From a virus, in the IMG/VR virus record IMGVR_UViG_3300045988_064400, positions 1 to 46,872 of that record: a stretch of DNA of 46,872 nucleotides, one strand, 5' to 3'. A model generated the notes under the pieces. It saw nothing but the letters and a program-made list of their open reading frames with translations, did not search any database and was not told the origin of the DNA. The position numbers and the translations under genes are program-made. Below are positions 19,534 through 34,131 of the stretch, one piece after another. Position 1 is the stretch's first letter. The number at the start of each line of letters is the position of its first letter.

Positions 19534-20094
19534 TTAAGAATTATAAAATTCATCGTTTATTTCTTCCATTATACTTTCGTCAACTTTGTTCGTCTTAGTA
19601 GGCAATGCCCATTCATTTTTTTGTTGTTTGCAAATATCATCATATTGTTGTGAATCTTTATGCCAAGCCCTCATTTGCATTATTTGCTTTATTTTTGTGT
19701 CATCTGGTAGCGATAAAAATAAAGCTTTGAATAAATGCCAATGCATATCACATACCGTTAAATCTATACCGTATGCGGACATAAAGGAACCAACAATATA
19801 TTCTCCGTCTAAAACGTAGTCTATAACTACATCCCCATGTGACGTATTACCCTTTGGTGTAGCGTTTGGATTTGAATAGAAATTTAGTAATTCTACAAAT
19901 ACATTATCAGGCAGATGAAACGCTTCCAGCAAGGTCATGTCCTTAAACACAAACAAACAGTCTAATATCGAATTTCTTCGATCTTTTATAACCTCTCCAA
20001 ATTTTATCCATGTTCTGAAGTCTGTGTCTAATAAAAAAGACTCACCATCTACCTCAATGGTTTCTGGCAAGCCCTTATTTCGTAAATCAATCAT
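19534..20094 (-). CDS. Gp15-like tail assembly protein
   Basis: 186 aa. 'LPETIEVDGESFLLDTDFRTWIKF' resembles the Bacteriophage Gp15 family, from memory. It sits between the chaperone and the tape measure gene. Confidence 0.55.
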   Translation of the reverse strand: MIDLRNKGLPETIEVDGESFLLDTDFRTWIKFGEVIKDRRNSILDCLFVFKDMTLLEAFHLPDNVFVELLNFYSNPNATPKGNTSHGDVVIDYVLDGEYIVGSFMSAYGIDLTVCDMHWHLFKALFLSLPDDTKIKQIMQMRAWHKDSQQYDDICKQQKNEWALPTKTNKVDESIMEEINDEFYNS

Positions 20095-20095
20095 A

Positions 20096-20470
20096 TTATA
20101 CTTTTATCCTGGATGCTTTATCCAAAGCTTCAACAAGATTGACTATCTTATCCACCTGATATTTATCCAAGTCAATCGTTGCATTTTCTTCGTTATATTC
20201 TTCAAGCGGTTTAGCGTAAGCACGAACTACCATAAGATAGAATATGTTTATGGTATTCGGGTCACTTTCGGTAAATTTACCAACCAGATTTGTAATTGCA
20301 TCTTCTCCAAGCAATTTACTTAAAAGGTCATACATTGATTTGCATTTGTCCTTGAATTTTGCGTTGCCAGAATTTATGACCTCCTGTTTTTCAATCATGT
20401 CTGCAATAGCAAACGTATATTGTGGTAAGTCATACTCCTGTCCCGCATAACTGATATAATAATTAGCCAT
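20096..20470 (-). CDS. Tail assembly chaperone
   Basis: 124-aa acidic ORF between the major tail protein and the tape measure gene. The call rests on synteny. Confidence 0.55.
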   Translation of the reverse strand: MANYYISYAGQEYDLPQYTFAIADMIEKQEVINSGNAKFKDKCKSMYDLLSKLLGEDAITNLVGKFTESDPNTINIFYLMVVRAYAKPLEEYNEENATIDLDKYQVDKIVNLVEALDKASRIKV

Positions 20471-20495
20471 AATTTACCTCCTTTAATTATGGATT

Positions 20496-20978
20496 TTAGA
20501 CTTCTGCTTGAAATGTCGGCGAACCGGCTTCTATCGTATAAGTTCCTTTTTCGATATCTCCGCCCATCTTAAGGGAGAATGTTATTTTACCATCTACAGT
20601 GTTAAGAACTTTAGATGTTAATGTTGCAATACATCTCCAAGCTTTCTTTCCTGTTCCACCAAAACACAAAAGCAGAGGAACTTGTGTATCAGCCCCAGTT
20701 GGTAAATTATACAATTCTCCTATGAGGAAATCATATATTGGGTTTCCTTCATAGCAAGCAATTTCCTGTGGAAGTTCCGGTTTATTTGAGTTGATTTCTG
20801 TAACTGCATTTTCGTAGCAGATATAATCCATATCCTCTTCCTGCTCACCGACAGTTAACTCAAAAATCGTAGAATAATCAATTCTTTTCCAAACTGAAGC
20901 GGCAAAGGTGGAATCTTTTTGCACGTCTAAAAATGGAATAAACTGATTTCTTGTCAATTTCTTCATTGCTTCTGGCAT
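20496..20978 (-). CDS. Major tail (tube) protein
   Basis: 160 aa, in the canonical position after the tail-completion gene. A paralog lies at 29404..30108. Confidence 0.65.
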   Translation of the reverse strand: MPEAMKKLTRNQFIPFLDVQKDSTFAASVWKRIDYSTIFELTVGEQEEDMDYICYENAVTEINSNKPELPQEIACYEGNPIYDFLIGELYNLPTGADTQVPLLLCFGGTGKKAWRCIATLTSKVLNTVDGKITFSLKMGGDIEKGTYTIEAGSPTFQAEV

Positions 20979-21427
20979 TATATTTCACTCCTTTTCTTTT
21001 CTAAATATTCTATATAAAATTGACCTTCATATCTTGCGATTGATGGATTATCTTGAGTTATATATACTTCAGGTGCTTTATATGTGGCACCTATTTCATT
21101 CACAACATAATTATCCCCTAAATCTGGATACTCATTGTTGTTGTTTTTTGTTTCGATAAATTCAATAACCTTATCAAATTCTGCAATAGCATCTAAGTTC
21201 AAATCACTTGTTCCGCCATTATCATATTCTCTTACTAGATTGATATTAAACATCAATCTAACTTCTTTTGCACCGTCCATGTATTCATTAAGGACAATAC
21301 TACTTGAATTGGAATTAACGGAAGAGGAACCTGCGTCAATAGGTATAACATTGAAGTAAGAATAACCACCCATTTCAGGACAATCTAATAACCATTGTGA
21401 AATTTTATCGTATATATTCACTTTCAT
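20978..21427 (-). CDS. Tail completion / tail terminator protein
   Basis: 149 aa. Synteny: directly upstream of the major tail gene. Confidence 0.5.
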   Translation of the reverse strand: MKVNIYDKISQWLLDCPEMGGYSYFNVIPIDAGSSSVNSNSSSIVLNEYMDGAKEVRLMFNINLVREYDNGGTSDLNLDAIAEFDKVIEFIETKNNNNEYPDLGDNYVVNEIGATYKAPEVYITQDNPSIARYEGQFYIEYLEKKRSEI

Positions 21428-21432
21428 TTTGA

Positions 21433-21780
21433 TTATCCCTTCCTTTTGATATATTCTGTGATTGCTCTTGCAACTACATCTTTCTTATCCCTAAATGCTG
21501 CTTCTTCCCAATGGCTTTGTGCAAGAAAGTTCTTTTCTTTGCTATAGTTCAAAGGATTTCCCTTGTCACTAATACCTTCCCATTGATAATGTGAATATAC
21601 TTGTTCATACGTCACTTTCCAAGGCTCTGTGGCATAAGATTGACTTAATGTTCCAGTGTCTTTTGGTGTATATTTTTCGAAAATCTTTGCCCATGTTTCT
21701 GCAGTAAATCTTCCAATATCATCATTTAATATACGATTAACGATTTTTATTGAAGGATTAATTTCCACCTTAACACTCAC
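21433..21780 (-). CDS. Head-tail joining protein (HK97 gp10-like position)
   Basis: 115 aa. The call rests on synteny within the connector block. Confidence 0.5.
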   Translation of the reverse strand: MSVKVEINPSIKIVNRILNDDIGRFTAETWAKIFEKYTPKDTGTLSQSYATEPWKVTYEQVYSHYQWEGISDKGNPLNYSKEKNFLAQSHWEEAAFRDKKDVVARAITEYIKRKG

Positions 21781-22187
21781 TATACACCACCTACCCGAAA
21801 TTCGAATTGAACGGACAATTTTTTATCCACTTGCTCAATACTTCGTATTTCACAAGTATTTGGTTCATAATCGTTCTTTACTTGTATTATATTCTGTGCA
21901 GTGACATCTTCTTCCACTATATCAAGTATAATTACATCCTGATTGGATAAAGTATAATAACCTGTCTTATCTTCTAATGCTTTCCACTCTTTATAGGGAA
22001 GATATTTATCCGTGAACGGTATGAGTATAGTGAATTGTTGACCCATTGAGACAACTGTTCCACTGATATTGGAAATTCTGTCTTTTTTATAAACACAATT
22101 CTCTATAACTGATTTATACCAAACATCAGTATTGGTTACAGAATCTTTTCTTTTAAGTCGATTGAGAAGGGTTATTGTACCTTGCAC
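21780..22187 (-). CDS. Head closure / head-tail adaptor protein
   Basis: 135 aa. GTG start preceded by gggaggtg. The call rests on synteny. Confidence 0.5.
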   Translation of the reverse strand: MQGTITLLNRLKRKDSVTNTDVWYKSVIENCVYKKDRISNISGTVVSMGQQFTILIPFTDKYLPYKEWKALEDKTGYYTLSNQDVIILDIVEEDVTAQNIIQVKNDYEPNTCEIRSIEQVDKKLSVQFEFRVGGV

Positions 22188-22578
22188 GATTCACCCACCT
22201 CCCTCGATAGAATAATTCCGGATATTTTGGATACAAGTATTCCATCATAATATCTTTGAATCTTTCAGTTAGGCTTGCGTCTAAACTCTTTTCAGATGCA
22301 TTACCATAACCGAAAGATTCAATTCCATTGCTATAAGATGTGGTGTTATCATCTCGTTCCATCTTAGAATTATTCTCTATATTGACTAACTTAACCTCCA
22401 ACATCTGAACCTCTTTTGGTACTGTTCCAAGCTCTTCAATCAGCTTAGCTAATCTTCCGCTTGTGATATAGTCCATTTTAGATTCAGTGTCAAACTGCAA
22501 AGTAAGAAATGCATCTTGTGTGCACTTCCCACCTAACGCTTGATATTCCTCAAATGTTAAATAACTCACAAGATGCAT
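22153..22578 (-). CDS. Head-tail connector (gp6-like position)
   Basis: 141 aa. It is the first connector ORF after the capsid block. Confidence 0.5.
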   Translation of the reverse strand: MHLVSYLTFEEYQALGGKCTQDAFLTLQFDTESKMDYITSGRLAKLIEELGTVPKEVQMLEVKLVNIENNSKMERDDNTTSYSNGIESFGYGNASEKSLDASLTERFKDIMMEYLYPKYPELFYRGRWVNRARYNNPSQST

Positions 22579-22587
22579 CTCCTTTCT

Positions 22588-22740
22588 TTACTCAGCTTCT
22601 GAGGCGGAGGCAACCTTAGTTGCTGACTTTTTTGTTTGCTTTTTTGTCACCTCTTCTCCGCCCATCATGTTTATATACGAATCAATGACTTCGGGATTTT
22701 CTGTGACTAAAACTGCACCATCGGGCATCTTAATCTCCAT
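22588..22740 (-). CDS. Small 50-aa protein between capsid and connector genes, not in the track
   Basis: My translation is MEIKMPDGAVLVTENPEVIDSYINMMGGEEVTKKQTKKSATKVASASEAE. Strong RBS ataaggagg upstream of the ATG at 22740. Confidence 0.55.
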   Translation of the reverse strand: MEIKMPDGAVLVTENPEVIDSYINMMGGEEVTKKQTKKSATKVASASEAE

Positions 22741-22760
22741 TATAGATCCTCCTTATCCGA

Positions 22761-23636
22761 TTAGACTTCTGCGTGTGTTCCGTCATACCAGAAAATGGTA
22801 TCAGGAGTTACTGCTTTTGTTCCATAATAGAAGAACATTTCTACTGCTACAGCTTCACTCAACGGAATACGTTCAGCGGAATATGGTTTGGATGTGATTG
22901 GCTGTGCAATGGACTCATCCATCATAATCTCAAACTTAACTCCGGATGGCAGTCTGTTTGAATTATAGCATTTAACTCCATGATACATATTGAACTCTTC
23001 TGATGTTGTATCTACATTAGTATTCACTACTGTATCAAGATACATTCTCATTGCCGAGTAAGTATCCGGGTCAAAAGTGATAGAAAGCATTGAACGGTCT
23101 AATCCGTCAATGTAGTTATTCTTCAACTTCTCAAGCTGTAGAATTGCGGATTCAACAATATCCTTAATATCTGTAACAGCTTTTGCCGGTTTGAACTGTG
23201 TTCCTGAATTTTTACCTTCTGCAAAGAATTCGGTATCAAGTTCTGCTACCATTCGTTGTGCATGATTTGCGGAACGCTTAGCCACCAATCCGTCTACGCC
23301 AAGCAAGCGGATATCTTTCTCTTCAATCTCCTCTACAAACTCTCTGTCCACGTTAATAGGCACGGTAACGGTCTTTCCTTTTACTGCCGTTCCTTTAGCC
23401 GCTGTACGAGCAGTTCCATAAGGCTGTGAACTTGCATTCACAAATCGTTTAGCTTCTACTGTGCCGGCTGTTGGATCACCACTCAAATCTGTGTTCTTGA
23501 TTTTAAATGATACTGTGCCTTTCTGGACGTTCTCAATAACGCCATCATATGCTTCTTTCAAGAGCATCTTTCCGGATTCACTACCGTCAAGCAATACGTT
23601 CAAAGAATCAAGTCTTGTTGTTTCTGGTCTTGCCAT
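22761..23636 (-). CDS. Major capsid protein
   Basis: 291 aa, directly after the scaffold gene, RBS aaaggagag. Typical size and position. Confidence 0.75.
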   Translation of the reverse strand: MARPETTRLDSLNVLLDGSESGKMLLKEAYDGVIENVQKGTVSFKIKNTDLSGDPTAGTVEAKRFVNASSQPYGTARTAAKGTAVKGKTVTVPINVDREFVEEIEEKDIRLLGVDGLVAKRSANHAQRMVAELDTEFFAEGKNSGTQFKPAKAVTDIKDIVESAILQLEKLKNNYIDGLDRSMLSITFDPDTYSAMRMYLDTVVNTNVDTTSEEFNMYHGVKCYNSNRLPSGVKFEIMMDESIAQPITSKPYSAERIPLSEAVAVEMFFYYGTKAVTPDTIFWYDGTHAEV

Positions 23637-23653
23637 TTTTTAATCTCTCCTTT

Positions 23654-24295
23654 TTACCAAAATGTCACCGAAGGCTTCTCTGGATCACCTTTCGGCTGTG
23701 TTTCTGTTCCAGAGGATTTTCCACTAAACTGCGGTTTAGGTGGTTCATCCTCACCAGAATTTTCTGTATCCTCTTTTAGGAATGCATCAGCATCCGTCTT
23801 CTTATAAGATTCCAGGAAGTCGTCAAATCCTTGCAACTGCCCATCTTTCATTTTCATTTCTTCTTTCAAGGCATCTGCTATAAAAGCTTTCTTTGCTGAA
23901 TTAGAAGAAAATTTCAACTCTGCAACTTTTTCTTTGATTGCAAATTCATAAGCCTGATTACTCAATTGCTTCTCGTAATTGGACTTTTCTGTGTTGTAGG
24001 TGTCCTGCAATTCTGAAAGTTCTTTCTGCAAGTCAGCTAACTTCGTAGTATCTGTCCCTGCGTCTTTCAACTTTCCCTGAAGGTCTTTAATATCAGCATC
24101 TCTTTGCTCGATGTCTGTGTCATACTTAGTCTTATAAGCATCTCGCTCACCTTCAGCCTTTTCCAACTTGTTTTGGATTTTAACTACCTCTGATATAGTC
24201 TTATAATTTTCATTTAAGGCTTTATCAAAGTCTTCCTTCTTATCTTCCGGAACTGTAAGTTCGAAAGATTTAAGAATCTCATAGATATTCTTCAT
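23654..24295 (-). CDS. Scaffolding protein (GP20-like coiled coil)
   Basis: 213 aa, highly charged K/E/D coiled coil, upstream of the capsid gene. Confidence 0.7.
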   Translation of the reverse strand: MKNIYEILKSFELTVPEDKKEDFDKALNENYKTISEVVKIQNKLEKAEGERDAYKTKYDTDIEQRDADIKDLQGKLKDAGTDTTKLADLQKELSELQDTYNTEKSNYEKQLSNQAYEFAIKEKVAELKFSSNSAKKAFIADALKEEMKMKDGQLQGFDDFLESYKKTDADAFLKEDTENSGEDEPPKPQFSGKSSGTETQPKGDPEKPSVTFW

Positions 24296-24369
24296 GTTTT
24301 TGCACTCCTTTATAATCTAAAATGATGTTTTTAACCCGCTTTCCGGGTTTTGGATTATCTACATTTTTT

Positions 24370-24398
24370 ATTATACACAACTTATCAACATTTGTAAA
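24370..24398 (-). promoter_or_regulatory. Promoter TTTACA-N17-TATAAT reading into the scaffold/capsid genes, embedded in the DnaA-box cluster
   Basis: The reverse complement of 24370-24398 reads tttaca-aatgttgataagttgtg-tataat. The -10 and the spacer overlap two DnaA-box-like 9-mers. Confidence 0.55.
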
Positions 24399-24532
24399 GT
24401 GTTTTTGTGGATAATTCTGTGTATAACTTGTTGATAAATCGAAGTTATACACAAGCAAAATGTTAAAATTGTTGATAAATCATAAGCAAAACAAAAGTTA
24501 TCCACAATTTAATGTGGATAACTTGTTGATAA
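24371..24532. promoter_or_regulatory. Cluster of ten DnaA-box-like 9-mers (three perfect TTATCCACA/TGTGGATAA)
   Basis: Perfect boxes at 24406-24414, 24498-24506 and 24513-24521. One-mismatch boxes at 24371-79, 24382-90, 24418-26, 24429-37, 24445-53, 24470-78 and 24524-32. Confidence 0.8.
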
Positions 24533-25636
24533 CTATAAATCATAACCTGGAACCTTTGCTCTGTTCCATTGCCTACGAAGATTTGCTTGTTTTGATGTGT
24601 ATCCATAAGACTGCTTCAATCTCTTTAACTGTTTTTTCTGTTCTTCCACGTCTTTTCCTGCTTCTTGTAATGCTATAATCTGTTCTTGTTTGTATCTCAT
24701 TTTGGTTTCAAGATTTCTCATCACTTGACTTGCTTCATACCTTGTTATTTCTTTATCGCCTATTTTTATTTTTTCGTTTGAATAGTCTTTTATGTTTTGC
24801 AATTCTTTATCATCATATGTTGGAGGTGATACACCAAGAATTATATAAGATATTCCATGTTGGCAATTGCAAGTTCCAAAATGTCTTTTTAATCTTGCAT
24901 TTATTGAATTGTATTTGGAAAGACTATATTGTCTTCCTTGATACGGTAAATGGTCTTCCGCACATAATCCATGAGCATCTAGTTCTATGCCATCTGCACC
25001 GTATTGTTTTCCTGCTTCTAATCGCACCCCGTAGTTGACTTGACGAACTCCTTCTAAAATGTTCATCCTTGCCGCACTATCTAATCTTCTTGTTCGTCCG
25101 CTTGAATATTGAACCCTTGCTCCTTGTGTTGCTTTATCGAGAATAATCCTTTCTAAAGCATCTTGATATCCGTCCATTCCGGTTGCTACTGTGTCTATCG
25201 CTAAATCAATAGCATCTTTATAATCCTTGGCAATGCTAGTTGTATTTGCCATGTTTGCAAATGTGCCAGCAGTTAAATTTCGGACAGAACTAATATAATT
25301 CTGTATTGCGGTATTTTTAGAAAAAACAGGTTGAGTAATTCCCTTATGCTTATATAAATAAGCAACATCTTTGTATATTTCACCGGCACTTTTATCATAC
25401 AGTTTATAAATATCTTGCAGGGCTAATCCGGATTGCTTTGAAAGGTATAGGTTTATTTCTTCAATGTTATTACCCATCTTAGCCATCTGTTCTAACCTGT
25501 GCATATTGTCTTTATCTAGTTTACCAATCTCTTTTATCTGTTCTGCCATTTTGGAAAGATAAAAGAGATTGACTTTTTCGAATCTATCAGCAATTCTAAA
25601 AGCAATGTTCGTTAATTCATCCTTTGATAAAGCCAC
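24533..25636 (-). CDS. Minor capsid / head morphogenesis protein (SPP1 gp7 / minor-capsid-2-like)
   Basis: 367 aa, immediately after the portal gene. 'GLCAEDHLPYQGRQYS' resembles the family motif, from memory. Confidence 0.65.
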   Translation of the reverse strand: MALSKDELTNIAFRIADRFEKVNLFYLSKMAEQIKEIGKLDKDNMHRLEQMAKMGNNIEEINLYLSKQSGLALQDIYKLYDKSAGEIYKDVAYLYKHKGITQPVFSKNTAIQNYISSVRNLTAGTFANMANTTSIAKDYKDAIDLAIDTVATGMDGYQDALERIILDKATQGARVQYSSGRTRRLDSAARMNILEGVRQVNYGVRLEAGKQYGADGIELDAHGLCAEDHLPYQGRQYSLSKYNSINARLKRHFGTCNCQHGISYIILGVSPPTYDDKELQNIKDYSNEKIKIGDKEITRYEASQVMRNLETKMRYKQEQIIALQEAGKDVEEQKKQLKRLKQSYGYTSKQANLRRQWNRAKVPGYDL

Positions 25637-25642
25637 TTAACA

Positions 25643-27229
25643 TCACTCCTCATTATTAGATTGATTATTCTGATTTAATGTGTCTTGTTTATCTGTAGGA
25701 TTATATTCTAAAGAATTGTCTTTAGTTTCTGTTGAACTAAACAAGTCGTTCATCATGTTCTGCTGTGCCTGTTCTTGCATCTTATCAATCTCTAATTGTG
25801 CGGCTTCTACAGATTCGCCAGTATACCAGGAACGAACTTCAGCCTTGCTTAAAATACCTGCAGTTTGAAGTGTCAATTTATGCTCCAATTCTGTATCTGT
25901 ATCCGTCAAAATGCTGTCTTTCCAATCTATATTTGTATCGTAATCTCCTGCCGGTGCTAGATTATACAATTCTGTAAAAACATTCATTGCATATACAACA
26001 TCTACCAAACATTGGTCTAAAGCTTTCTGTAAATCGGAAACCGTGATATAGGTTCTTTGCTTAACAAGTTTGATTTCGGTAGCTGTTCTTGCGTCTAATT
26101 CTACTTGGGACAATGTTCCTCTTGCTAGTCCTATCATATCTTCAATCTTATTTGTATAAACATTGAGTCCATTTATATAATTCGCATCTCGCAAAGAAGG
26201 AGCCCATTCATGATAGGTTTCGTCAGAACCTGTATCTAATCTACGATATAATCTGTCTTGTAAGTCATCCAAGTTAGTTTTTGTTCCATAGTAACCTTCA
26301 CTATATGTTACTGCTGTTGGGTCAACGTCAATTGCTAATTGTCCGCCTTTGTATTCCCAATCAAGTCTGCTAAATTGTTCATCAGCTTTTTTAATCAATT
26401 TTGCCGCAGGATTGAAAATTGAAATTCCAAGCGGTGATTTCATATCGACATTATTAGCAAGGGGAACTTTGAAATATCCATACAATGGCTTTTCTGTGTT
26501 CTCAATCGTTACCGGTTCTTCACTAATTCCATTCCATCGGTCAATGGATGATAATGGTATTTCTTGTCCAAGTTCCTGCTCTACTTCATCATCCGGTGTG
26601 CGTAACTGTGCTTTGAATGCCTTATTCTCCACCACTACCATTTTCTTATCAAAAGAGAATGTCTGTCTTTCTACTTTTGTATAGACATATTTTCCGGAAG
26701 TGAACTGGTCAAAAAAAGCAACGTCAATGATATTTCCATCATCATCAAAAGTTATAGGATAGAACTCCCCTTGCTGGTTAAAATCAAGATATAACTGTCC
26801 ATTGCTCATGTACGGCTTTACAATCATCCCACCAAGAGCCAATGCTTTCTCAAAAGATTGAGGTAGATTTTTAATAAGCCTTTTTTGGTAAATATCATTC
26901 AAGAATTTAGCTCTTGTATCAATGACATCATCTTTATCCTGTTCTATAGAATCTTCAACTCCAGGCTCTGAGATAGATGTTTCCATTTCAGACAATGTCT
27001 GCTGTTGCAAAGATTGGCATATCTGTTTAGGCAATCCTAAAGAATATACACCTTTAACATCGTCAAGCCAAGGACTTTCGTCTTTATACATGGATTTCCA
27101 TACATCCAAGGCATTCGACATTTCGTCTGATATGCCGGTATCATCAATTTCAAAAGCATCGGTAATTGATTTATACCCAATCATTTTTCCGATGGCTTCA
27201 TAGATTAAATTCAATAATTTTTTAATCAT
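25643..27229 (-). CDS. Portal protein
   Basis: 528 aa. Size and position upstream of the minor capsid/scaffold/capsid genes. Acidic Q/N-rich C-terminus. Confidence 0.75.
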   Translation of the reverse strand: MIKKLLNLIYEAIGKMIGYKSITDAFEIDDTGISDEMSNALDVWKSMYKDESPWLDDVKGVYSLGLPKQICQSLQQQTLSEMETSISEPGVEDSIEQDKDDVIDTRAKFLNDIYQKRLIKNLPQSFEKALALGGMIVKPYMSNGQLYLDFNQQGEFYPITFDDDGNIIDVAFFDQFTSGKYVYTKVERQTFSFDKKMVVVENKAFKAQLRTPDDEVEQELGQEIPLSSIDRWNGISEEPVTIENTEKPLYGYFKVPLANNVDMKSPLGISIFNPAAKLIKKADEQFSRLDWEYKGGQLAIDVDPTAVTYSEGYYGTKTNLDDLQDRLYRRLDTGSDETYHEWAPSLRDANYINGLNVYTNKIEDMIGLARGTLSQVELDARTATEIKLVKQRTYITVSDLQKALDQCLVDVVYAMNVFTELYNLAPAGDYDTNIDWKDSILTDTDTELEHKLTLQTAGILSKAEVRSWYTGESVEAAQLEIDKMQEQAQQNMMNDLFSSTETKDNSLEYNPTDKQDTLNQNNQSNNEE

Positions 27230-27247
27230 GACTTATTTCTCCTTATA

Positions 27248-28123
27248 TTATTCAGTTACCGTTGTATCTGTGTCTGTTTTAGGTGTAAGTGCCTCTAATG
27301 CTTCAATTCTTTTCAACAAAGATGCTACATCATCTGTAATTTTTATCACTTTTTCGTTTCCATCAATCGTGGTAGTAATAGGAGTTGCAAGTTCATAATA
27401 AAGATATTTACCTTGCATTGCTTCCTTAAATTGTTCAGCGGAACGTGTCGTGTTGAAACCTATTGCTCCGTCTCCACTACTAGCTATATAGTTGGTATCT
27501 ACTTTGCCTTGGCTAGTTAACTTATTCCAAGATACTGTCAAATAATCTCTACAATATATATTCGAAGCTGTTTCTGTATCTAAATGAACTTTAATTTTAT
27601 CTTGTATGGCATAGGTGTAAACACCATAAGCCACCTGTTCTCCATAGTCTAAACTTCCTAAATCAACTCTACCAACTTTCTGTATAAACTGATTTTCATT
27701 TACTTCATTCTGTATAGGACATTCTTTAGGTACACTCCATCCCAGCATTTTAATATCCATCATTTCTGAGGATTGTTCTGAAAGGCTTTCTTTTATTTCT
27801 GTATCATCATATACTGTATCAGTAAATACTGCATTTTCTGGTACATCACTTTTTACTGTATGACTTCCTAATTGTTCTGATAATTCCGTTAAAGAAGTAG
27901 ATTGTTTTTCTAACTTTTCTCCTACTGTTTTTGCTTCTGCTGGAACTCCTTCTTCTGTCAATGTTGGGTCTGTCAGTTTCAAATCTACTGTCTTTAGATT
28001 TCCTACCAAAGGAACATTGTTTATAGACGGTTTATTCTGCAAGTCATTATAGTTACCTGTTCCTTCTCCGCCTCCACTTGTTTCAATCTTTCTAAATCCA
28101 GGTATTACTACTCTTTGTGCCAT
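27248..28123 (-). CDS. Fibre-like protein (tail-fibre N-terminal motif) in the TerL-portal insertion
   Basis: Trimmed to the ATG at 28123 (aaggag RBS; avoids a 100-nt overlap). 'YNDLQNKPSINNVPLVGNLKTVDL' resembles the N-terminal repeat of phage fibres. Confidence 0.55.
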   Translation of the reverse strand: MAQRVVIPGFRKIETSGGGEGTGNYNDLQNKPSINNVPLVGNLKTVDLKLTDPTLTEEGVPAEAKTVGEKLEKQSTSLTELSEQLGSHTVKSDVPENAVFTDTVYDDTEIKESLSEQSSEMMDIKMLGWSVPKECPIQNEVNENQFIQKVGRVDLGSLDYGEQVAYGVYTYAIQDKIKVHLDTETASNIYCRDYLTVSWNKLTSQGKVDTNYIASSGDGAIGFNTTRSAEQFKEAMQGKYLYYELATPITTTIDGNEKVIKITDDVASLLKRIEALEALTPKTDTDTTVTE

Positions 28124-28140
28124 TTTTAATCTCCTTTCAA

Positions 28141-28461
28141 TTAGTTCAAAATATTTAATTCTTCGTATGTTTTGTATATTTTTGGAAATTGTATCGCTAT
28201 CCAATCTACCATCGTTTCGTTGTGTCCCCATTGTGTGCAATTTTCAAAATTTGATTGCAAACCGCTTTCCGAAAGGTAAGCGTGTATAATTTCATGCCTT
28301 AACTGTTTCTTCATTAAATATTCAAAATTTCCAACATTGTTATAGTTGTCTTTTCTTATAACGATTGTCTTACTTGTATTGTCACACCACCCATCTGTAT
28401 TTGAATTTTTCAAGGTTTTTCGTTTAATCTTATAAGTAGTACCCAATATATTTGCTTTCAT
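28141..28461 (-). CDS. Small HExxH metallopeptidase-like protein
   Basis: 106 aa with 'LRHEIIHAYL' (HExxH) followed by 'HNET'. Confidence 0.55.
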   Translation of the reverse strand: MKANILGTTYKIKRKTLKNSNTDGWCDNTSKTIVIRKDNYNNVGNFEYLMKKQLRHEIIHAYLSESGLQSNFENCTQWGHNETMVDWIAIQFPKIYKTYEELNILN

Positions 28462-28535
28462 GATTTCGCCTCCTCCTTGACTTTTTAGTCTTTCTAAATC
28501 ACGATATTATTACTGTTGTTTTTTTCTTAATTAGT

Positions 28536-29399
28536 CTACCAACTATTTTCTTCATTGCTTCCTGTATACTCCTCGCCAGTATTAGCAAGCAGAAACCACG
28601 ATTGTTCACTATCTTTCTTTGATCTAATAATCATATGCTTCGTACCATTTAGTTTAATAAACCGTTGCGTCAACAATGCTGTTGGCATTGAACATATCAT
28701 CCACATATTTTCTACTACGTGAGGAACAAAATCAGAACCGCATAACGAAAAATCTCTTAGTACAAGAATTCCATTGTCCCTAGTTTTTCTTGATGGTGTA
28801 TTAGGAGAAGCCATTACCGCATCTTGAAAATATTCATATAATGTTTCTGTAAGTGCTGTACTTACTGTATCTATACCTCCGTGAAAATTTAAAGCACCCA
28901 AAACACCGTCTTCATTTCCTGACGCAATTCCGGCGGAATACATATCATAACGTATTTGTCCAAATTCTAATGCTGCATCGTTTGGGGGAATAATAACCAT
29001 ACCGTTATTAAATCCATCTGACATTATCGAACTGTGAACATATGCAACAAGTAAATTATTATCGAAAATAAATATTTGCAAGTCAAAAACATTATTATCA
29101 CCGTACCAATCAACCATATTTGTTCCTATATAAACTCGCATCTCAGACAACACATAATCATCAGTGCGTTGCCAAGGTATTAAATGTACGAAAACTCTTC
29201 CTTTATGACAAATTTCCCAGTAATGAAATTGTTTGGAAGCACCTTTATAGATTCCAACTTCAACTGTAAATCCATCTTCTGCGGATAATCCAAAAATTTC
29301 TAACCATACATCCTTTTGTCCTTCTGGATCATTTTTTATCAAGGTCAATTGTTCTGTGTGTGTTTTTAATTTTCCAAGGTCAACATTTATTTCTTTCAT
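28536..29399 (-). CDS. Hypothetical protein (TerL-portal insertion)
   Basis: 287-aa ORF. I recognised no motif. Confidence 0.55.
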   Translation of the reverse strand: MKEINVDLGKLKTHTEQLTLIKNDPEGQKDVWLEIFGLSAEDGFTVEVGIYKGASKQFHYWEICHKGRVFVHLIPWQRTDDYVLSEMRVYIGTNMVDWYGDNNVFDLQIFIFDNNLLVAYVHSSIMSDGFNNGMVIIPPNDAALEFGQIRYDMYSAGIASGNEDGVLGALNFHGGIDTVSTALTETLYEYFQDAVMASPNTPSRKTRDNGILVLRDFSLCGSDFVPHVVENMWMICSMPTALLTQRFIKLNGTKHMIIRSKKDSEQSWFLLANTGEEYTGSNEENSW

Positions 29400-29403
29400 A
29401 TAA

Positions 29404-30108
29404 TCAACTCCAATCTACACTTGTGTAAGTTTTCAAAGTTTCTTTGTTCTTCAAACACTTTATTCTAATTAAATCTATAACATCTCCCGATGCATTTACT
29501 TTATTATTCATATAGTATAATACAGAAATCGGACATATTCCAATTTCTCTTATTGTACTATAGGGCAAATTTGTATCATCTTCACCGACTGATATTTCAG
29601 CTATTGTACCACAAGATTGAGTAGGTTCTGGTGTGTTCTGTGTGCTAAAAACTACTTTTCCATCAGTAATCTTATAAAATCCTTTGGTTATTTCTCCTCC
29701 AATTTTCATGCTGAAAGATATTCTGCCGTCAATTGTGTTCAGTGTCTTTCCTGATATTGTGCATATGCCACGCCAAGCACGTTTTTCGGAACCTCCAAAT
29801 GCCAAGATAAAAGGCACTTTACAATCTTCTCCTATAGGAAGATTATATAATTGGTCAAACATAAAATCATACATAGGATTTCCTTCGTATAATGCTATCT
29901 CCTGTGGAAGTTCTGGCTTATTAGATGTTACAACTGTTATTGGATTTTCGAAACAGATATAATGTATATCTTCTTCCGTCTCGTTTATTGTTAATTCAAA
30001 AATCGTCGAATAATCAATTCTTGTCCAATTTGAATTTTCAAATGTTTTGTCTTTATTTATATCCAAAAAAGGAATGAATTGGTCTTTTGTCAATCTAGTA
30101 ACACTCAT
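29404..30108 (-). CDS. Major-tail-protein paralog with a ~75-aa C-terminal extension
   Basis: Trimmed to the ATG at 30108 (ggaggtg RBS). By manual alignment, 93 of ~150 positions are identical to 20496..20978 (e.g. 'SNKPELPQEIA.YEGNP.YDF'). Confidence 0.7.
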   Translation of the reverse strand: MSVTRLTKDQFIPFLDINKDKTFENSNWTRIDYSTIFELTINETEEDIHYICFENPITVVTSNKPELPQEIALYEGNPMYDFMFDQLYNLPIGEDCKVPFILAFGGSEKRAWRGICTISGKTLNTIDGRISFSMKIGGEITKGFYKITDGKVVFSTQNTPEPTQSCGTIAEISVGEDDTNLPYSTIREIGICPISVLYYMNNKVNASGDVIDLIRIKCLKNKETLKTYTSVDWS

Positions 30109-30135
30109 TAGGCATTTCACCTCCTCTGTCTTTTT

Positions 30136-30164
30136 ATAATACAACATTGCAAATAAAATTACAA
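30136..30164 (-). promoter_or_regulatory. Possible promoter (TTGTAA-N17-TATTAT) at the head of the TerL-portal insertion
   Basis: The reverse complement reads ttgtaa-ttttatttgcaatgttg-tattat. AT-rich context, so this could be a chance match. Confidence 0.3.
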
Positions 30165-30170
30165 ATCAAA

Positions 30171-31436
30171 TTATTTTCCTTTTCGTTTCCATACTCGTTC
30201 CATTGCATACCTTGTCATATCAATACTGTGGTTATTATCATCCGGGTACACCGAAGTAGGATTGCCCTCTTTATCCAATTCATACTCGTATTTCTTAAAT
30301 TCTTTAGCAGTTTCCGGGCATCTTACTGGGTCTATAACAATCTTGATAAGGGATTGTAGCCACTTCATGCCATATCTTACACTATCTGGGCCTTTGTCTG
30401 CACCCCTTGCGTTTATTCCATAACTTCTATAATCTGCGATGGACTTATTCTCAGCACTATCACAAGTTACTACATCATATCTTCCAAGATTGAATTTATC
30501 TTTGAGGATTTTTCCTGTTTCACTATTCCGCATTTTGTTTGTCCGGAACTCTTCGAAAATATACAATATCATTCTAGCACTATCATAATGCATACAACCA
30601 TAATGGAATGGATCTGGAAACCATCCCCAGTCAACTCCTCTATATAATCTATCAAATCTTGCTATTTCTTCATCTGTTATTTGTCTAATTTCAAGATTAT
30701 CGAATACTTCTGTACCATTTCCTATAGGAATGCCAAGATACTCATATTCATAGGCTTTGGGATTCACCATTTTAAGCCATTCAGCATCATCTATAAACTG
30801 TTGACCTAACCATTCTTTCGGTGATGTTAGATAAGTTGTTTGAGATACAAGTGTATCTTTTCTCAATTTCTCTTTCTCTATATAGTCATTTGCCCAATTC
30901 TGTCTTGATTTAGGCGGGTTCATTGATTTGAACACAACGAAGTCATTTCCACCACGAATGACAGATTGTTGTACTTTACGGATTTCTTCTTCTCCAGAAA
31001 ATTCATCAAACTCCTCAAACCATAAGTAACCTATATATCCAAATGGCACTTTGATTGATTTTGATTTTGCCGCTTTATCCAATCCCTTGAATATAATCTT
31101 TTGTCCAGTTGGGAGATATTCGGCTCTCATTGGGGATTTAGTCAATTTCCATAAACGAGAAACGCCTAATATATCAATAGCCCATTCTATTTGTGCAAAT
31201 ACTGATGTTTCAAGTGTATCTCCTACTTTTCTATAGATGACAGCGTGTTTATTTTTATTTTCCTTCTTCATCATGTTATAGATTATCTCTACAGACACAC
31301 ACGAAGATTTCAAGGAACCACGTCCGCCAGTCAAATCATAATAAGTATGCTTTCCAGCTTGTATATCCTTATGTACACTATAAAATGCTTTTCCAATGCA
31401 CTTTGAAAGTGGTCTACCCTTAATTGCTTTCTTCAT
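30171..31436 (-). CDS. terL: Terminase large subunit (PBSX/XtmB-like)
   Basis: 421 aa. Walker-A-like 'TGGRGSLKS'; C-terminal nuclease-like region 'DDNNHSIDMTRYA'. It overlaps the TerS 3' end. Confidence 0.85.
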   Translation of the reverse strand: MKKAIKGRPLSKCIGKAFYSVHKDIQAGKHTYYDLTGGRGSLKSSCVSVEIIYNMMKKENKNKHAVIYRKVGDTLETSVFAQIEWAIDILGVSRLWKLTKSPMRAEYLPTGQKIIFKGLDKAAKSKSIKVPFGYIGYLWFEEFDEFSGEEEIRKVQQSVIRGGNDFVVFKSMNPPKSRQNWANDYIEKEKLRKDTLVSQTTYLTSPKEWLGQQFIDDAEWLKMVNPKAYEYEYLGIPIGNGTEVFDNLEIRQITDEEIARFDRLYRGVDWGWFPDPFHYGCMHYDSARMILYIFEEFRTNKMRNSETGKILKDKFNLGRYDVVTCDSAENKSIADYRSYGINARGADKGPDSVRYGMKWLQSLIKIVIDPVRCPETAKEFKKYEYELDKEGNPTSVYPDDNNHSIDMTRYAMERVWKRKGK

Positions 31437-31875
31437 CTAAATCATCCTCAATCTCAGCATCATCCGGAATATCGTCTATAATATTAACTGCACATTCTAC
31501 ATTGATATTCTTTGCTCTTACATCTAACCTCTTAGCCAACTCACTTGCGGCTTTTGTTCTTTCACTCAATGCTGCTTCTAAATCAAATTGGTCTTTCTTC
31601 TCTCCACGCATTACTGATGTGAGATATTCCATTACTTCCTGAATATCAGCAATCTTTGCATCATCCAATCTTTCCCTTATTGCTTCGATGTAATTTTGAA
31701 TTCTTACATCTTTTAACAAGCGTGAACCTTGTGCATATGCTCCTTTAGGCATATATCCTGCACTAATAGATGATTGTGTCACGTTATTCGTTTTCATATA
31801 TTCTTGTACGAATAAAATCTGTCTTGGATTAAGATGTTTCTTACATTCCTTTTCTTTTTCAGTCTCTTTTCTCAT
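31420..31875 (-). CDS. terS: Terminase small subunit (Terminase_2-like)
   Basis: 151 aa. 'LNPRQILFVQEYMKTNNVTQSSISAGY' HTH typical of small terminases. Directly upstream of TerL. Confidence 0.75.
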   Translation of the reverse strand: MRKETEKEKECKKHLNPRQILFVQEYMKTNNVTQSSISAGYMPKGAYAQGSRLLKDVRIQNYIEAIRERLDDAKIADIQEVMEYLTSVMRGEKKDQFDLEAALSERTKAASELAKRLDVRAKNINVECAVNIIDDIPDDAEIEDDLDEESN

Positions 31876-32089
31876 TTTTTACCTCCTGCCATAATCTATT
31901 CAATTCACTTGTTGCTTTTATTTGAGAAGCTGTATTTATTAGTTCTTTCTTATTATGAACTAATTTATACATTTTAATAAATCTATCTTGCTCCGCAGAA
32001 TAAAATTGATATGTGTTTATATACACCAATACTCCTTTTTGTTTTAATGCTAATTGTAATTTATACATTAGCTTAGATAAATCTGCCAT
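31859..32089 (-). CDS. Hypothetical protein (first late gene)
   Basis: Trimmed to the ATG at 32089, which follows aaggaggtg. Confidence 0.55.
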   Translation of the reverse strand: MADLSKLMYKLQLALKQKGVLVYINTYQFYSAEQDRFIKMYKLVHNKKELINTASQIKATSELNRLWQEVKNEKRD

Positions 32090-32112
32090 ATGCACACCTC
32101 CTTTTTAGTATT

Positions 32113-32141
32113 ATTATAATATACTAATTATTTTTTGTAAA
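32113..32141 (-). promoter_or_regulatory. Late-operon promoter TTTACA-N17-TATAAT
   Basis: The reverse complement reads tttaca-aaaaataattagtatat-tataat. It lies between a terminator hairpin and the RBS of the first packaging-module gene. Confidence 0.6.
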
Positions 32142-32170
32142 TAAAAGAAGGATGTTTTTATTTACATCCT
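32139..32170 (-). terminator. Terminator ending the sigma/MazF unit
   Basis: A 7-bp stem: aggatgt (32149-32155) pairs with acatcct (32164-32170), 8-nt loop. TCTTTTATTT follows on the minus strand. Confidence 0.5.
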
Positions 32171-32188
32171 CCCGCATTTTCGTAATTT

Positions 32189-32509
32189 TTATTTATCTTT
32201 TATATGTTGCAGATACATTTCGTGTTGTTCTTGTTTTGTTAAATTAGCATACTTATCTTCATGTACTGAATATCTATATTCTATATGCCCGGCAAGTAAT
32301 ATTATTAAAACAATAATTATTCCTAATGATATATTAAGCAATTTTTCTTTTTTATGTTTTTCATTATTATTTACTTTCCATAATTTTTTATGATTATTTT
32401 GAGATTTCCATTTTTTCCAACACGTCTCCCCCATTCCTATTTCTATTGCTTTCGGGTTTCTTAATTTTCGTCCACATCTTTTACAAGTTGCCTGCTCTAA
32501 TTCATTCAT
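32189..32509 (-). CDS. Zn-ribbon (CxxCGR...GxGxxC) protein with a C-terminal TM helix
   Basis: 106 aa. 'CKRCGRKLRNPKAIEIGMGETCWKKW' is DUF6011-like, from memory. TM segment 'LLNISLGIIIVLIILLAGHI'. Confidence 0.55.
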   Translation of the reverse strand: MNELEQATCKRCGRKLRNPKAIEIGMGETCWKKWKSQNNHKKLWKVNNNEKHKKEKLLNISLGIIIVLIILLAGHIEYRYSVHEDKYANLTKQEQHEMYLQHIKDK

Positions 32510-32510
32510 A

Positions 32511-32855
32511 TTATTTTTTACCTCCTAATGATAATTGTAATTTGATGCATTCGTTTAATATCTTCACATCATCTTTATTTATTGTTCCACTATAATTTTT
32601 TAGATATTTTTTATCGACTGTCAACATCTGCTCCGGCAGACAATAATTTAATCTATTATTTATTTGAAAACATAATCTACCATGCATTGGAAGATAATCT
32701 TTCTTTGTTGTTAATGGAACAACTTGAACTACATCACAATATAGATTATTCTTATCGTTACTAACAACAACACAAGGTCTAAATCCTCGTTGATAATGTT
32801 TTCCGTCAGGAAATAACATATCAAGGTCTAACCAATATACATCTCCGCGTCTCAT
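32511..32855 (-). CDS. mazF: MazF/PemK-family endoribonuclease toxin homolog
   Basis: 114 aa. 'RRGDVYWLDL...GFRPCVVVSNDKNN...VVPLTT...LPEQMLTVDKKYL' aligns by eye along the full length of B. subtilis EndoA/MazF. Confidence 0.8.
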   Translation of the reverse strand: MRRGDVYWLDLDMLFPDGKHYQRGFRPCVVVSNDKNNLYCDVVQVVPLTTKKDYLPMHGRLCFQINNRLNYCLPEQMLTVDKKYLKNYSGTINKDDVKILNECIKLQLSLGGKK

Positions 32856-33376
32856 ATTGCTTCCTCTACTTTCTTTTTTGCCCTGCTTAATAGTCTGGAT
32901 ACTCCAGCTTGAGATATTCCTATTATGCTAGCTATCTCAGCTTGATTCATTCCTTGATAGCGCAACTTACAAACAGTCAATTCTCTTTCATCTAATATAT
33001 CTTCTAAATCAAATAATATTAAACTATCTTCTAAATATTCTGTTCCAAGCATATCATCAAGGCACAATGAATCTCCATCTCTTTCATACACCTCCTGGTC
33101 AAGGCTTATAGTATATGAAGATATTTTTCTTTTATCACATTGGGCTAATCTAAAATATGTTTTCACAACATTAGTAAGAACGGCACTAGCATATGTATTA
33201 AATTTCACTCCACTGTCTTTATTATAAGACAATGCCGCTCTACATAATCCCAAAGCTAACTCTCCATACTCTTCATTTGGATTATACCCCCTACCGATAT
33301 ATTTTGAACCAATATACCAAATAAGTCCTTCATTATCCTCAACTAACTTTCTTTGTTCATCGTTTAATTTTTTCAT
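32852..33376 (-). CDS. Sigma-70 family RNA polymerase sigma factor
   Basis: 174 aa. Region 2 'EEYGELALGLCRAALSYNKDSGVKFNTYASAVLTN'; region 4 'LRYQGMNQAEIASIIGISQAGVSRLLSRAKKKV'. Its stop overlaps the mazF start (ATGA). Confidence 0.8.
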   Translation of the reverse strand: MKKLNDEQRKLVEDNEGLIWYIGSKYIGRGYNPNEEYGELALGLCRAALSYNKDSGVKFNTYASAVLTNVVKTYFRLAQCDKRKISSYTISLDQEVYERDGDSLCLDDMLGTEYLEDSLILFDLEDILDERELTVCKLRYQGMNQAEIASIIGISQAGVSRLLSRAKKKVEEAI

Positions 33377-33378
33377 AA

Positions 33379-33756
33379 TTATTTCTCCTTTGCTTTTTCA
33401 AAATTTTTTATAGCTGATTTGATAACCCAACCAGTCCAGCTTATATCATCTTTTTCCAGTTCCATATAATACATTCCACGAGTTTCTTTTATAACTCCCC
33501 CTTGCATAGTGCATAAAGGCATTGGATGTCCATTATTCCATTTATCTTGGAAATCAAATGTAGTTGTTGCAGGTTCTGTCATATATTTTTTGACAGTGAT
33601 TTTATATGACTTTCCTACTTCCATTTTATTTGATTCCATATGCTTTACAGCATAAGTTACTCCGCAATGTCTTGCTGGAAGGGTAAACTCAAATGGTTTA
33701 CCCTCTTCAAATTCCTGTTCACTATATCTATGTATTTGACTAAATATTTGTTTCAC
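33379..33756 (-). CDS. Hypothetical protein
   Basis: 125-aa ORF, RBS aggagggg. Confidence 0.55.
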   Translation of the reverse strand: MKQIFSQIHRYSEQEFEEGKPFEFTLPARHCGVTYAVKHMESNKMEVGKSYKITVKKYMTEPATTTFDFQDKWNNGHPMPLCTMQGGVIKETRGMYYMELEKDDISWTGWVIKSAIKNFEKAKEK

Positions 33757-33771: not shown

Positions 33772-34008
33772 CTAGTTGCTGTAGAGCGGAGCATAGCACT
33801 CTTTGAGATCATCTAATATCTTAGCCTGTCCCCCTTCTTCCTCGATCTCATCACTGGTAAAGGTTACATCCTCAATTATTTTTTGCTCAATTGTTGCAAA
33901 TCCATCAGCATCAATTACATCGTACATTGCTCTAACTATATACCGTATAGTACAAGCAAATCCGTCTACCTCTGTGTCTAAAACATTTTTAATAAATTGT
34001 TTTCTCAT
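33772..34008 (-). CDS. Small acidic hypothetical protein (first gene after cassette promoter 4)
   Basis: 78 aa, D/E-rich ('TSDEIEEEGG'), RBS aaggaggt. Confidence 0.55.
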   Translation of the reverse strand: MRKQFIKNVLDTEVDGFACTIRYIVRAMYDVIDADGFATIEQKIIEDVTFTSDEIEEEGGQAKILDDLKECYAPLYSN

Positions 34009-34052
34009 AACTTTGTACCTCCTTGTTTTATGTATTTCTTATTTACAAATAT

Positions 34053-34081
34053 ATTGTAATACATAAAAAGAAAAATGTCAA
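34053..34081 (-). promoter_or_regulatory. Early promoter cassette copy 4 (TTGACA-N17-TACAAT)
   Basis: attgta at 34053-34058 and tgtcaa at 34076-34081 with a 17-nt spacer. Conserved flanks at 34030-34084. Confidence 0.7.
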
Positions 34082-34101: not shown

Positions 34102-34131
34102 ATAAAAAAGTGGTGAGAATAAACTCACCAC
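34102..34131 (-). terminator. Rho-independent terminator after the HolA-like gene
   Basis: Stem gtggtgag (34110-34117) pairs with ctcaccac (34124-34131), 6-nt loop. TTTTTT follows on the minus strand. Confidence 0.7.

Follow-up and report, generated by a model that had tools for sequence, protein, structure and literature searches.

The toxins of toxin-antitoxin (TA) systems are normally thought to need a dedicated antidote, and the published biology of phages and the endoribonuclease MazF is one of host MazF enzymes and phage-encoded inhibitors. Here, we describe a mazF gene in the viral record IMGVR_UViG_3300045988_064400 (the whole stretch of 46,872 nucleotides is called the window in the following) that is preceded by a gene for a sigma-70-family factor and followed by a gene for a small DUF6011 protein, and for which Pfam searches recognized no antitoxin. 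Our reading, which we hold to be probable, is that this gut phage uses an antitoxin-free MazF in lytic growth and owes its immunity to the avoidance of the MazF target site in its late genes.

The enzymes closest to the window MazF in sequence and structure are the MazF proteins of Bacillota (EndoA/NdoA) with a U^ACAUA site. Strict cleavage at U^ACAUA is described for MazF of B. subtilis, L. monocytogenes, and S. aureus, and MazF-bearing species are argued to avoid the site in their 16S rRNA (bioRxiv 10.64898/2026.08.06.743204), which is the same avoidance logic as that proposed here. The window MazF shares with these enzymes the fold, the catalytic Arg/Thr pair, the E-Q motif conserved in an 'LPEQ..T.DK' segment, and an inferred strict U^ACAUA site. 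It is only about 30% identical to them in sequence and, unlike them, is encoded by a phage in whose genome no integrase was detected and has no recognizable antitoxin; self-protection seems to consist in the removal of sites from the late genes.

A second parallel is RegB of phage T4, a sequence-specific early RNase with a toxin fold and without a known antitoxin, which inactivates early mRNAs and eases later expression (PMC3014915) and is modulated by the small phage protein RIII (PMC9409239). RegB and the window MazF are both phage-encoded and have the fold of a TA toxin, and both would be sequence-specific RNases that are made early and have no known antitoxin. However, RegB has a RelE/YoeB-like fold without homology to MazF, cuts GGAG within Shine-Dalgarno sequences, and depends on ribosomal protein S1. 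To our knowledge, a purge of the RegB site from late genes is not involved in T4.

The principle that we propose for the window phage has been put to use in engineered single-protein production, in which MazF destroys site-bearing mRNAs and a recoded, ACA-less message is translated exclusively (PMC9102682, PMC5408214). That system is man-made and relies on E. coli MazF, a 3-nt site, and one gene, whereas the window phage would be a natural case with a 6-nt site and about 20 kb of late genes. The phages phi3T and SPbeta deal with MazF differently; their proteins AimX and YosL inhibit host MazF by MazE-like helices (PMC10769878). As in the window, a phage of Bacillota would interact with a UACAU(A)-specific MazF, and small phage proteins are encoded near a life cycle decision point, but phages that face host MazF have site-rich transcripts (bioRxiv 10.1101/2023.04.27.537455), whereas the window phage has a MazF gene of its own, and its late transcripts are site-free. 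The tail of its DUF6011 protein has no similarity to the MazE helix. Finally, the window MazF belongs to the family of the phage genes annotated as 'MazF-like growth inhibitor' (PHROG 1936), which occur in lytic Lactobacillus Herelleviridae, Tybeckvirinae, Heliusvirales, and Streptococcus prophages, usually with no annotated antitoxin. Our literature searches on these genes returned annotations only, with nothing on mechanism, specificity, or a self-immunity strategy, and we found no description of a phage that encodes MazF and has its late genes purged of the site.

UACAUA is nearly absent from late genes of MazF-positive phages

The window has 22 copies of UACAUA in the early region and a single one in the 19.7-kb late region, the latter in terL (31375-31370). 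Expected numbers were obtained from synonymous-codon shuffles that preserve the protein sequence and the codon usage. In the late coding sequences, UACAUA was observed once, with 8.4 ± 2.5 copies expected, and the shorter words were depleted as well: UACAU was found 13 times (27.7 expected) and ACAUA 10 times (27.6 expected), which makes ACAUA the third most depleted of 719 pentamers, ranking behind fragments of restriction-type palindromes only. The early coding sequences have a normal count of 9 (10.8 expected), and the site is also present in the mazF operon itself, namely in its leader, in a gene for a 125-amino-acid (aa) protein, and in the sigma gene. The reverse complements of the UACAUA words are not depleted in the late genes. 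Selection at the DNA level, in the form of asymmetric restriction site avoidance, was rejected as an unlikely explanation, as sites occur at the normal frequency on this strand in the early half, and their reverse complement has a normal frequency throughout. The avoidance of short motifs on the coding strand, suggested as a check by the initial annotation of the locus, was thus decisive once early and late genes were analyzed apart. A Markov test of k-mers on the coding strand of the whole genome had brought up palindrome avoidance only (UACAU, 58 versus 52 expected); it was misleading because the sites in the early region masked the depletion in the late genes.

The palindromes avoided in the whole window, counted on both strands (observed versus expected), are GATC (24/148), ATTAAT (2/32), TTTAAA (8/38), GAATTC (6/23), ATCGAT (0/6), and TGTACA (1/7.5). 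The set differs among related phages, with ATTAAT being avoided in the MazF-positive group and not in the MazF-negative group.

For comparison, we used 80 loci (L numbers designate loci throughout) that were anchored on terL and extended by 10 kb on each side; the figures given are observed/expected. Nine loci from five lineages are MazF positive, and in these UACAUA was found 2/43 times in late genes, 33/33 times in early genes, and 32/34 times as the reverse complement in late genes. In 14 MazF-negative close relatives (terL, 81 to 86%), the corresponding figures were 40/60, 62/50, and 34/45, and they were 22/27, 31/28, and 35/29 in MazF-negative loci at 66 to 70% and 43/32, 53/39, and 80/72 in those at 52 to 54%. 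The per-locus difference between MazF-positive and close MazF-negative loci had a P value of 6e-5 in a Mann-Whitney test that ignores kinship. Lineages with and without MazF are interspersed with one another at a terL nucleotide identity of about 80%.

The same word emerged from an unbiased scan. In late genes of phages with MazF, no other of 1,863 hexamers was as depleted as UACAUA, and UACAUAU and AUACAUA ranked first and second among 2,941 heptamers; the other strongly depleted hexamers were mostly palindromes, several of which were equally depleted in MazF-negative phages. Furthermore, at positions orthologous to the sites of MazF-negative phages, the site was lost in MazF-positive phages in 119/120 comparisons, and in 48 of these 119 cases the amino acids were unchanged and only a synonymous base differed. 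The purge follows MazF and not the sigma factor: three MazF-positive loci without the sigma gene have 0/5 (L299), 0/6 (L319), and 2/6 (L321) late UACAUA sites, and the sigma-positive, MazF-negative locus L330 has 6/7.

The mazF gene is intact and constrained

Consistent with an active enzyme, no sign of decay was seen in mazF. The protein matches PF02452 over its full length (residues 2 to 107 cover profile positions 1 to 108 of 109; E = 2e-19, 70.1 bits versus a cutoff of 23.1) and phrog_1936 (E = 4e-23). The AlphaFold2 (AF2) model has a mean predicted local distance difference test (pLDDT) value of 92.5 and a predicted template-modeling (TM) score of 0.85, and a Foldseek search with it gave 4MZP, 4OF1, and 4MDX as top matches (TM score, 0.84 to 0.87; root mean square deviation [rmsd], 1.9 to 2.1 Å), the best structural matches being MazF of S. 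aureus and MazF of B. subtilis in complex with RNA. The catalytic residues of MazF are Arg25 and Thr48 in B. subtilis numbering. In an alignment with S. aureus MazF, R26 and T49 of the window protein take the positions of these two residues. A set of 42 homologues has R26 without exception and T49 in at least 90% of cases, and neither residue varies among six sequences of the MazF clade. A toxin homologue lacking catalytic residues, which the initial annotation had named as a finding that would speak against its proposal, is hence not what the alignment and the fold revealed.

Among near-identical phages, mazF has 10 to 13 synonymous and 0 to 1 nonsynonymous differences; it is the most constrained gene of its operon and is under strong purifying selection. 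Its database homologues group in a separate clade of 64 clusters (124 bits or more; next match, 96 bits), none of which has a fusion to another domain. We infer from the late-gene avoidance and from the homology to Bacillota MazF that the enzyme cleaves U^ACAUA.

Antitoxins of the MazE/AbrB, PemI, ribbon-helix-helix (RHH), and Phd families were not found by Pfam among 40 small open reading frames (ORFs) of the complete genome, and thus the earlier statement that there is no recognizable antitoxin holds at this sensitivity, for the neighborhood of mazF (where no cognate partner of the MazE/AbrB, RHH, or PemI type was seen) as well as for the rest of the genome. The cellular and environmental relatives are different in this respect: a small ORF abuts the start of mazF in 76/85 of them and mostly encodes an RHH-type MazE with an acidic, Trp-containing tail. 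That no antitoxin-like ORF lies beside the three genes is right as well, although small ORFs do exist there (78 and 125 aa upstream, 78 aa downstream); none of them is conserved alongside MazF in relatives.

A possible role of MazF in lytic growth

In the proposed course of events, mazF would be transcribed from an early-type promoter together with the accessory sigma gene, and MazF would act as a U^ACAUA-specific RNase that cuts site-bearing host mRNAs. The early mRNAs of the phage, which have sites at ordinary frequency and in shared leaders, would also be cut, and possibly those of competing phages, too. The late mRNAs, recoded largely synonymously, would remain intact and translatable while MazF is active, so that protection would come from target site avoidance and not from a neutralizing protein. 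The sigma factor would be a transcription factor in its own right, accessory and a frequent companion of mazF, and mazF would happen to be inserted beside DUF6011, a core small protein of the phage family. Host shutoff, a faster or sharper transition from early to late expression, or the exclusion of competitors may be what the phage gains. The strength of the late-gene purge would imply that MazF is active, and not effectively neutralized, during late-gene expression. Of the roles considered by the initial annotation, the evidence favors an RNase that acts on mRNAs around the early-to-late transition or in host shutoff. Several points would fit a RegB-like RNase, namely, an early-type promoter, a normal density of sites in early coding sequences and leaders, and a near absence in late genes; the leader site is not specific to MazF-positive phages, being present in MazF-negative relatives, too.

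It is imaginable, and to us an even bet, that virulent gut phages have evolved a natural counterpart of single-protein production: an antitoxin-free MazF with a six-base site would destroy the mRNAs of the host and of competitors as well as spent early mRNAs, about 20 kb of recoded late genes would monopolize the ribosomes, mazF with or without the sigma gene would be a mobile takeover cassette whose acquisition is followed by a rapid genome-wide purge, and the specificity of any phage-borne RNase toxin could be read from what its late genes avoid.

If the proposal is true, the phage wields a toxin offensively and is self-protected purely by recoding, which would account for the many phage mazF genes that stand alone and would add a third mode of phage-MazF biology to host MazF defense and phage MazF inhibitors. 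The comparison of late genes of carriers and noncarriers would offer a computational readout of RNase specificity from genome composition, and an established biotechnology method would have a natural counterpart. The proposal is likely to surprise toxin-antitoxin and phage specialists, and it is directly testable.

Several observations weigh against this proposal. The independent units are few, with five MazF-positive lineages compared with three close and two distant lineages that are MazF negative. The close MazF-negative relatives are themselves mildly depleted in their late genes (observed/expected, 0.63 to 0.67), and host range could confound the link between mazF carriage and purge. Clade MazFs on other backbones (L222 to L230) have about 2 expected sites per locus, which is too low to judge, and no UACAUA effect was seen for distant phage MazFs of the Heliusvirales type, which may have other specificities. 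UACAUA in the early leader is found in MazF-negative relatives as well, which leaves a dedicated feedback role unsupported. Lastly, DUF6011 always adjoins MazF when both are present, and locus L096 has kept DUF6011 and lost MazF; DUF6011 may thus modulate MazF.

In loci L277 to L289 (MazF score with the clade profile, about 92 bits), both flanks of mazF are poor in UACAU, with about 1 to 3 copies observed versus 4 to 7 expected per locus, counts that are too small to interpret.

Host MazF or MazE as alternative players

The main rival is that the selective agent is the chromosomal MazF of the host, with a host range that is confounded with mazF carriage. Host MazF, released after host shutoff, would drive the late purge, and the phage mazF would be incidental, having been acquired from MazEF-bearing hosts. 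Host MazF indeed restricts SPbeta-like phages and is manipulated by them (PMC10769878; bioRxiv 10.1101/2023.04.27.537455), and both the mild depletion in MazF-negative relatives and the family-wide early leader, which has UACAUA even without a phage mazF, would fit. However, the near-complete purge (observed/expected, 0.05) is confined to mazF-carrying lineages that are interleaved with MazF-negative ones, phages facing host MazF encode inhibitors and are site enriched (bioRxiv 10.1101/2023.04.27.537455), and an incidental gene would not show the strong purifying selection on the phage mazF. We regard this explanation as unlikely.

It might also be possible that the antitoxin is encoded by the host, whose MazE would neutralize the phage MazF early and, upon being degraded, serve as a timer. 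The phage MazF is 30 to 41% identical to cellular MazFs that are paired with RHH-type MazE, and cross talk of phage proteins with host MazE or MazF is documented (PMC10769878), but such a timer is not needed to explain the data, and we give it little credence.

DUF6011 as a candidate modulator

A somewhat stronger case than that for host MazE, although still an improbable one, can be made for DUF6011 as a noncanonical antitoxin or modulator that is encoded after the toxin and restrains MazF early, in a type II-like module of reverse order. DUF6011 abuts MazF on either side in 26/30 distinct clade loci, with gaps of about −44 to +74 nt and otherwise varying neighbors; on other backbones, unrelated small proteins (a 62-aa phrog_12650 protein or a 122-aa CxxC..CxxC protein) fill the slot; and L096 retained DUF6011 after the loss of MazF. 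The small protein combines an ordered N-terminal core with a flexible tail, which bears a conserved Trp mainly in MazF-linked copies; AimX and YosL are precedents for small MazF-binding phage proteins (PMC10769878).

On the other hand, DUF6011 is present in 32/33 loci of the family (terL at least 66% identical; terL-anchored, tblastn), with or without MazF, among them all 15 close loci that lack MazF, whose DUF6011 gene likewise lies between a clamp loader gene and terS; in L294 and L300, it was detected by tblastn. Because the same slot is filled in close MazF-negative relatives, the antitoxin hypothesis was largely abandoned. DUF6011 is a core gene of the phage family and mazF an accessory gene inserted beside it. 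Moreover, DUF6011 is strongly basic (pI 10), whereas the MazF-binding tails of MazE are acidic; a copy that has lost two of three invariant Cys residues lies beside a MazF identical to that of the window; the core is a generic module of many unrelated phage proteins; and the late-gene purge would imply that MazF is active late in infection.

The PF19474 match lies at residues 6 to 34 (E = 3e-10, 40.0 bits versus a cutoff of 26.6). In the AF2 model, the core (residues 6 to 37; pLDDT about 90) consists of a Cys knuckle, a helix, a G-x-G turn, and a second helix, and in its CxxCGRxL...GxGxxC motif, C9, C12, C30, G13, R14, G25, and G27 are invariant in 44 sequences. A hydrophobic helix at about residues 56 to 75 is followed by a tail of 26 to 30 aa. 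The initial annotation had called the protein a Zn ribbon with a C-terminal transmembrane helix; the Cys motif and the membrane helix are there, but a zinc ribbon is unproven with only three Cys residues, and the helix is central. Foldseek against the PDB gave nothing below E = 1, and literature searches found no papers on DUF6011. The transmembrane tail is restricted to the window lineage, and 113 homologue clusters (30 to 84 aa) are without such a helix. A 30-residue core superposes at 0.3 to 2 Å on the terminal module of many uncharacterized phage proteins matched in BFVD (110 to 333 aa; from Mycobacterium, Gordonia, Streptomyces, and Rhizobium phages), which suggests a generic knuckle that may bind nucleic acids or proteins.

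In many relatives, a gene for a membrane-anchored cell wall hydrolase (SLT or Hydrolase_2) overlaps the end of the DUF6011 gene by 11 to 20 nt (e.g., L094 2646-3236, L205 3065-3754, L207 1445-1990, and L301 8396-8941). The window lineage is without this downstream hydrolase, and its DUF6011 has its own transmembrane helix; an origin of the tail by fusion with the membrane anchor of the hydrolase was considered and dropped, as no homologue was found. The copy with lost Cys residues is in L001 (5347-5667, the same contig as L210); it is of the DUF6011::TM type (core plus transmembrane helix), with the exchanges C12Y and C30W, that is, two of three invariant Cys residues, and the MazF beside it is 100% identical to that of the window. 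In L096 (2153-2499), the N-terminal half of MazF with the catalytic Arg is destroyed and a C-terminal ORF of 70 codons is left, while the upstream sigma gene and the downstream gene for a 51-aa DUF6011 are intact. A Trp versus Phe in the DUF6011 tail was tried as a marker of MazF linkage and gave a trend only, with two exceptions and nonindependent lineages.

The sigma factor is an accessory gene

The sigma protein has both Sigma70_r2 (PF04542, residues 11 to 76) and Sigma70_r4 (PF04545/PF08281, residues 127 to 170), each above the gathering score, matches TIGR02937 with 77.6 bits (cutoff, 42.9), and is closest to the SigF/G/E/K types. It occurs in 6/9 MazF-positive and 2/15 MazF-negative close loci, that is, sigma and mazF tend to co-occur, and when both are present, they are translationally coupled.

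The initial annotation had proposed that the sigma factor or the DUF6011 protein takes the place of the antitoxin, or that all three genes form a TA or addiction module, and we consider a sigma antitoxin or a three-component module very improbable. Besides the co-occurrence, the ATGA overlap of sigma and mazF and the unrelated phrog_36 regulators that precede MazF in Heliusvirales phages and in phage Javan405 could be taken in its favor. However, the sigma-less loci L299, L319, and L321 keep an intact MazF as well as the purge, and the near-identical loci L308 and L319 differ only in the presence of the sigma gene; a complete sigma-70-family protein with regions 2 and 4 has an ordinary function available; and the phrog_36 regulators are not detectably related to sigma. 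Close relatives have acquired and lost the three genes independently of one another, with no co-inheritance of the toxin and a partner: each of the 15 close loci without MazF has DUF6011, and sigma is missing from 3/9 MazF-positive loci. Nor is there an obvious replicon to be addicted to, because the genome is a complete circle in which no integrase was detected. Conserved synteny, another check suggested at the outset, revealed that the triad is not fixed, with DUF6011 being core and mazF and sigma being accessory. The three genes are a mosaic and not an obligate module, and sigma appears from its domains and distribution to be an accessory gene and not an antitoxin.

That DUF6011::TM, anchored in the membrane, serves the sigma encoded upstream as an anti-sigma factor, with MazF as an unrelated insertion between them, is scarcely credible either: a Cys-containing N-terminal domain with a single transmembrane helix downstream of a small sigma resembles the layout of extracytoplasmic function (ECF) sigma/anti-sigma pairs, but the HxxxCxxC motif of zinc-binding anti-sigma (ZAS) proteins and an anti-sigma Pfam match are both lacking (the protein has a CxxC and one distant Cys, with no His ligand in register), the transmembrane fusion is found in the window lineage only, and DUF6011 occurs without sigma in 21 loci, 13 close and 8 more distant.

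Genome and operon setting

The window is a complete circular phage genome of about 46.83 kb with 33% GC; positions 1 to 44 are identical to 46829 to 46872, as is typical of a circular assembly. The minus strand carries essentially all genes. Replication functions are encoded in the early half, namely, a primase, DnaB, DnaC, three clamp-loader-like proteins, a UvsX-like recombinase, and a Cas4-like nuclease, and the packaging, structural, and lysis genes occupy the block from about 32.1 to 12.2 kb. The phage looks virulent, because no integrase, recombinase, or repressor was detected among about 80 ORFs scanned.

The mazF unit is a five-gene early operon located just before the packaging genes (Table 1). 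The three ORFs of the triad are found on the minus strand where the initial annotation had placed them, with the ATGA overlap of sigma and mazF and a 1-nt gap between mazF and the DUF6011 gene. Its claim that they close an early transcription unit holds at the consensus level, with hairpins and promoter-like sites bracketing five genes. The first protein (78 aa) has no Pfam or PHROG match, and the gene for the second (125 aa) was detected in L001 to L003 and not in L004 to L043; it is kept only in the closest relatives of the window. The promoter-like site before the late genes resembles a host sigma-A-type promoter. The leader that follows it is without UACAUA, and the gene order downstream is a 78-aa gene, terS, and terL.

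TABLE 1 Features of the mazF operon and its surroundings in the window
Feature	Coordinates	Strand	Basis
Terminator-like hairpin, end of preceding transcription unit (function predicted)	34110..34131	-	Consensus scan: 8-bp stem, 5 GC pairs, then T run
Early promoter-like site of five-gene operon: TTGACA, 17 nt, TACAAT	34053..34081	-	11/12 consensus match
UACAUA in transcribed leader of sigma-mazF operon	34029..34034	-	Sequence mapping
78-aa protein, function not assigned, operon gene 1	33772..34008	-	ORF list
125-aa protein, function not assigned; one UACAUA at 33734-33729	33379..33756	-	ORF list, site map
Sigma-70-family factor, 174 aa; one UACAUA at 33197-33192	32852..33376	-	Pfam, PHROG, NCBIfam, site map
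MazF/PemK endoribonuclease, 114 aa	32511..32855	-	PF02452, phrog_1936
DUF6011 protein, 106 aa: core, membrane helix, short tail	32189..32509	-	PF19474, AF2 model
Terminator-like hairpin closing operon	32146..32173	-	Consensus scan
Promoter-like site before packaging/late genes: TTTACA, 17 nt, TATAAT	32113..32141	-	11/12 consensus match
Late block (packaging, structural, lysis), UACAUA-purged on coding strand	12164..32095	-	Synonymous-codon shuffles

The early promoter and leader are part of a cassette that consists of TTGACA, 17 nt, and TACAAT, followed by ATA.TTGTAAATAAGAAA-TACATA-AAA and a Shine-Dalgarno sequence. Copies at about 34081-34029, 6740-6692, 39790-39747, and 46872-46840 (wrapping to 60-12) head several early operons, and the cassette is conserved in relatives with or without MazF. 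The leader segment of the cassette is invariant and might function as an operator or as an RNA element. The leader UACAUA was considered as a dedicated feedback site for MazF and rejected, since the same element is present in most MazF-negative relatives and, therefore, did not evolve for the phage's own MazF.

Related mazF loci in other phages

In Clostridium and Coprococcus Heliusvirales phages and in Streptococcus phage Javan405 (L116 1993-2857, L117 1995-2845, and L118 2000-2851), a gene for a 161- to 163-aa phrog_36 'transcriptional regulator', which follows a SNF2 helicase gene, lies 4 to 9 nt upstream of mazF and echoes the order of regulator and MazF in the window. Remote homology of these regulators to sigma was rejected (hhalign probability, 4.6%, with only the C-terminal helix-turn-helix aligning). 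Close MazF relatives without DUF6011 on other backbones have a 59- to 62-aa helical phrog_12650 protein 3 to 14 nt downstream, and in an integrase-bearing prophage on a 927-kb contig, mazF is followed within 3 to 14 nt by a gene for a 122-aa CxxC..CxxC coiled-coil protein (loci of these two types: L133 3322-3510, L135 3337-3525, and L208 2858-3037; L202 10371-10739).

Long MazF homologues of gut phages (170 to 211 aa) with a charged, coiled-coil-like C-terminal extension are found in L017 to L043 (e.g., L034 3836-4432), where they lie in the replication module between the genes for a ParB-like nuclease and a single-stranded DNA-binding protein and have no upstream MazE. In L103 (2501-4877) and L104 to L115, contigs of 43 to 134 kb that were found by sigma similarity alone (30% identity), a MazF homologue is encoded 1.5 kb downstream of sigma; a transmembrane protein and a tyrosine integrase separate the two, and the stop of the integrase gene overlaps the start of mazF.

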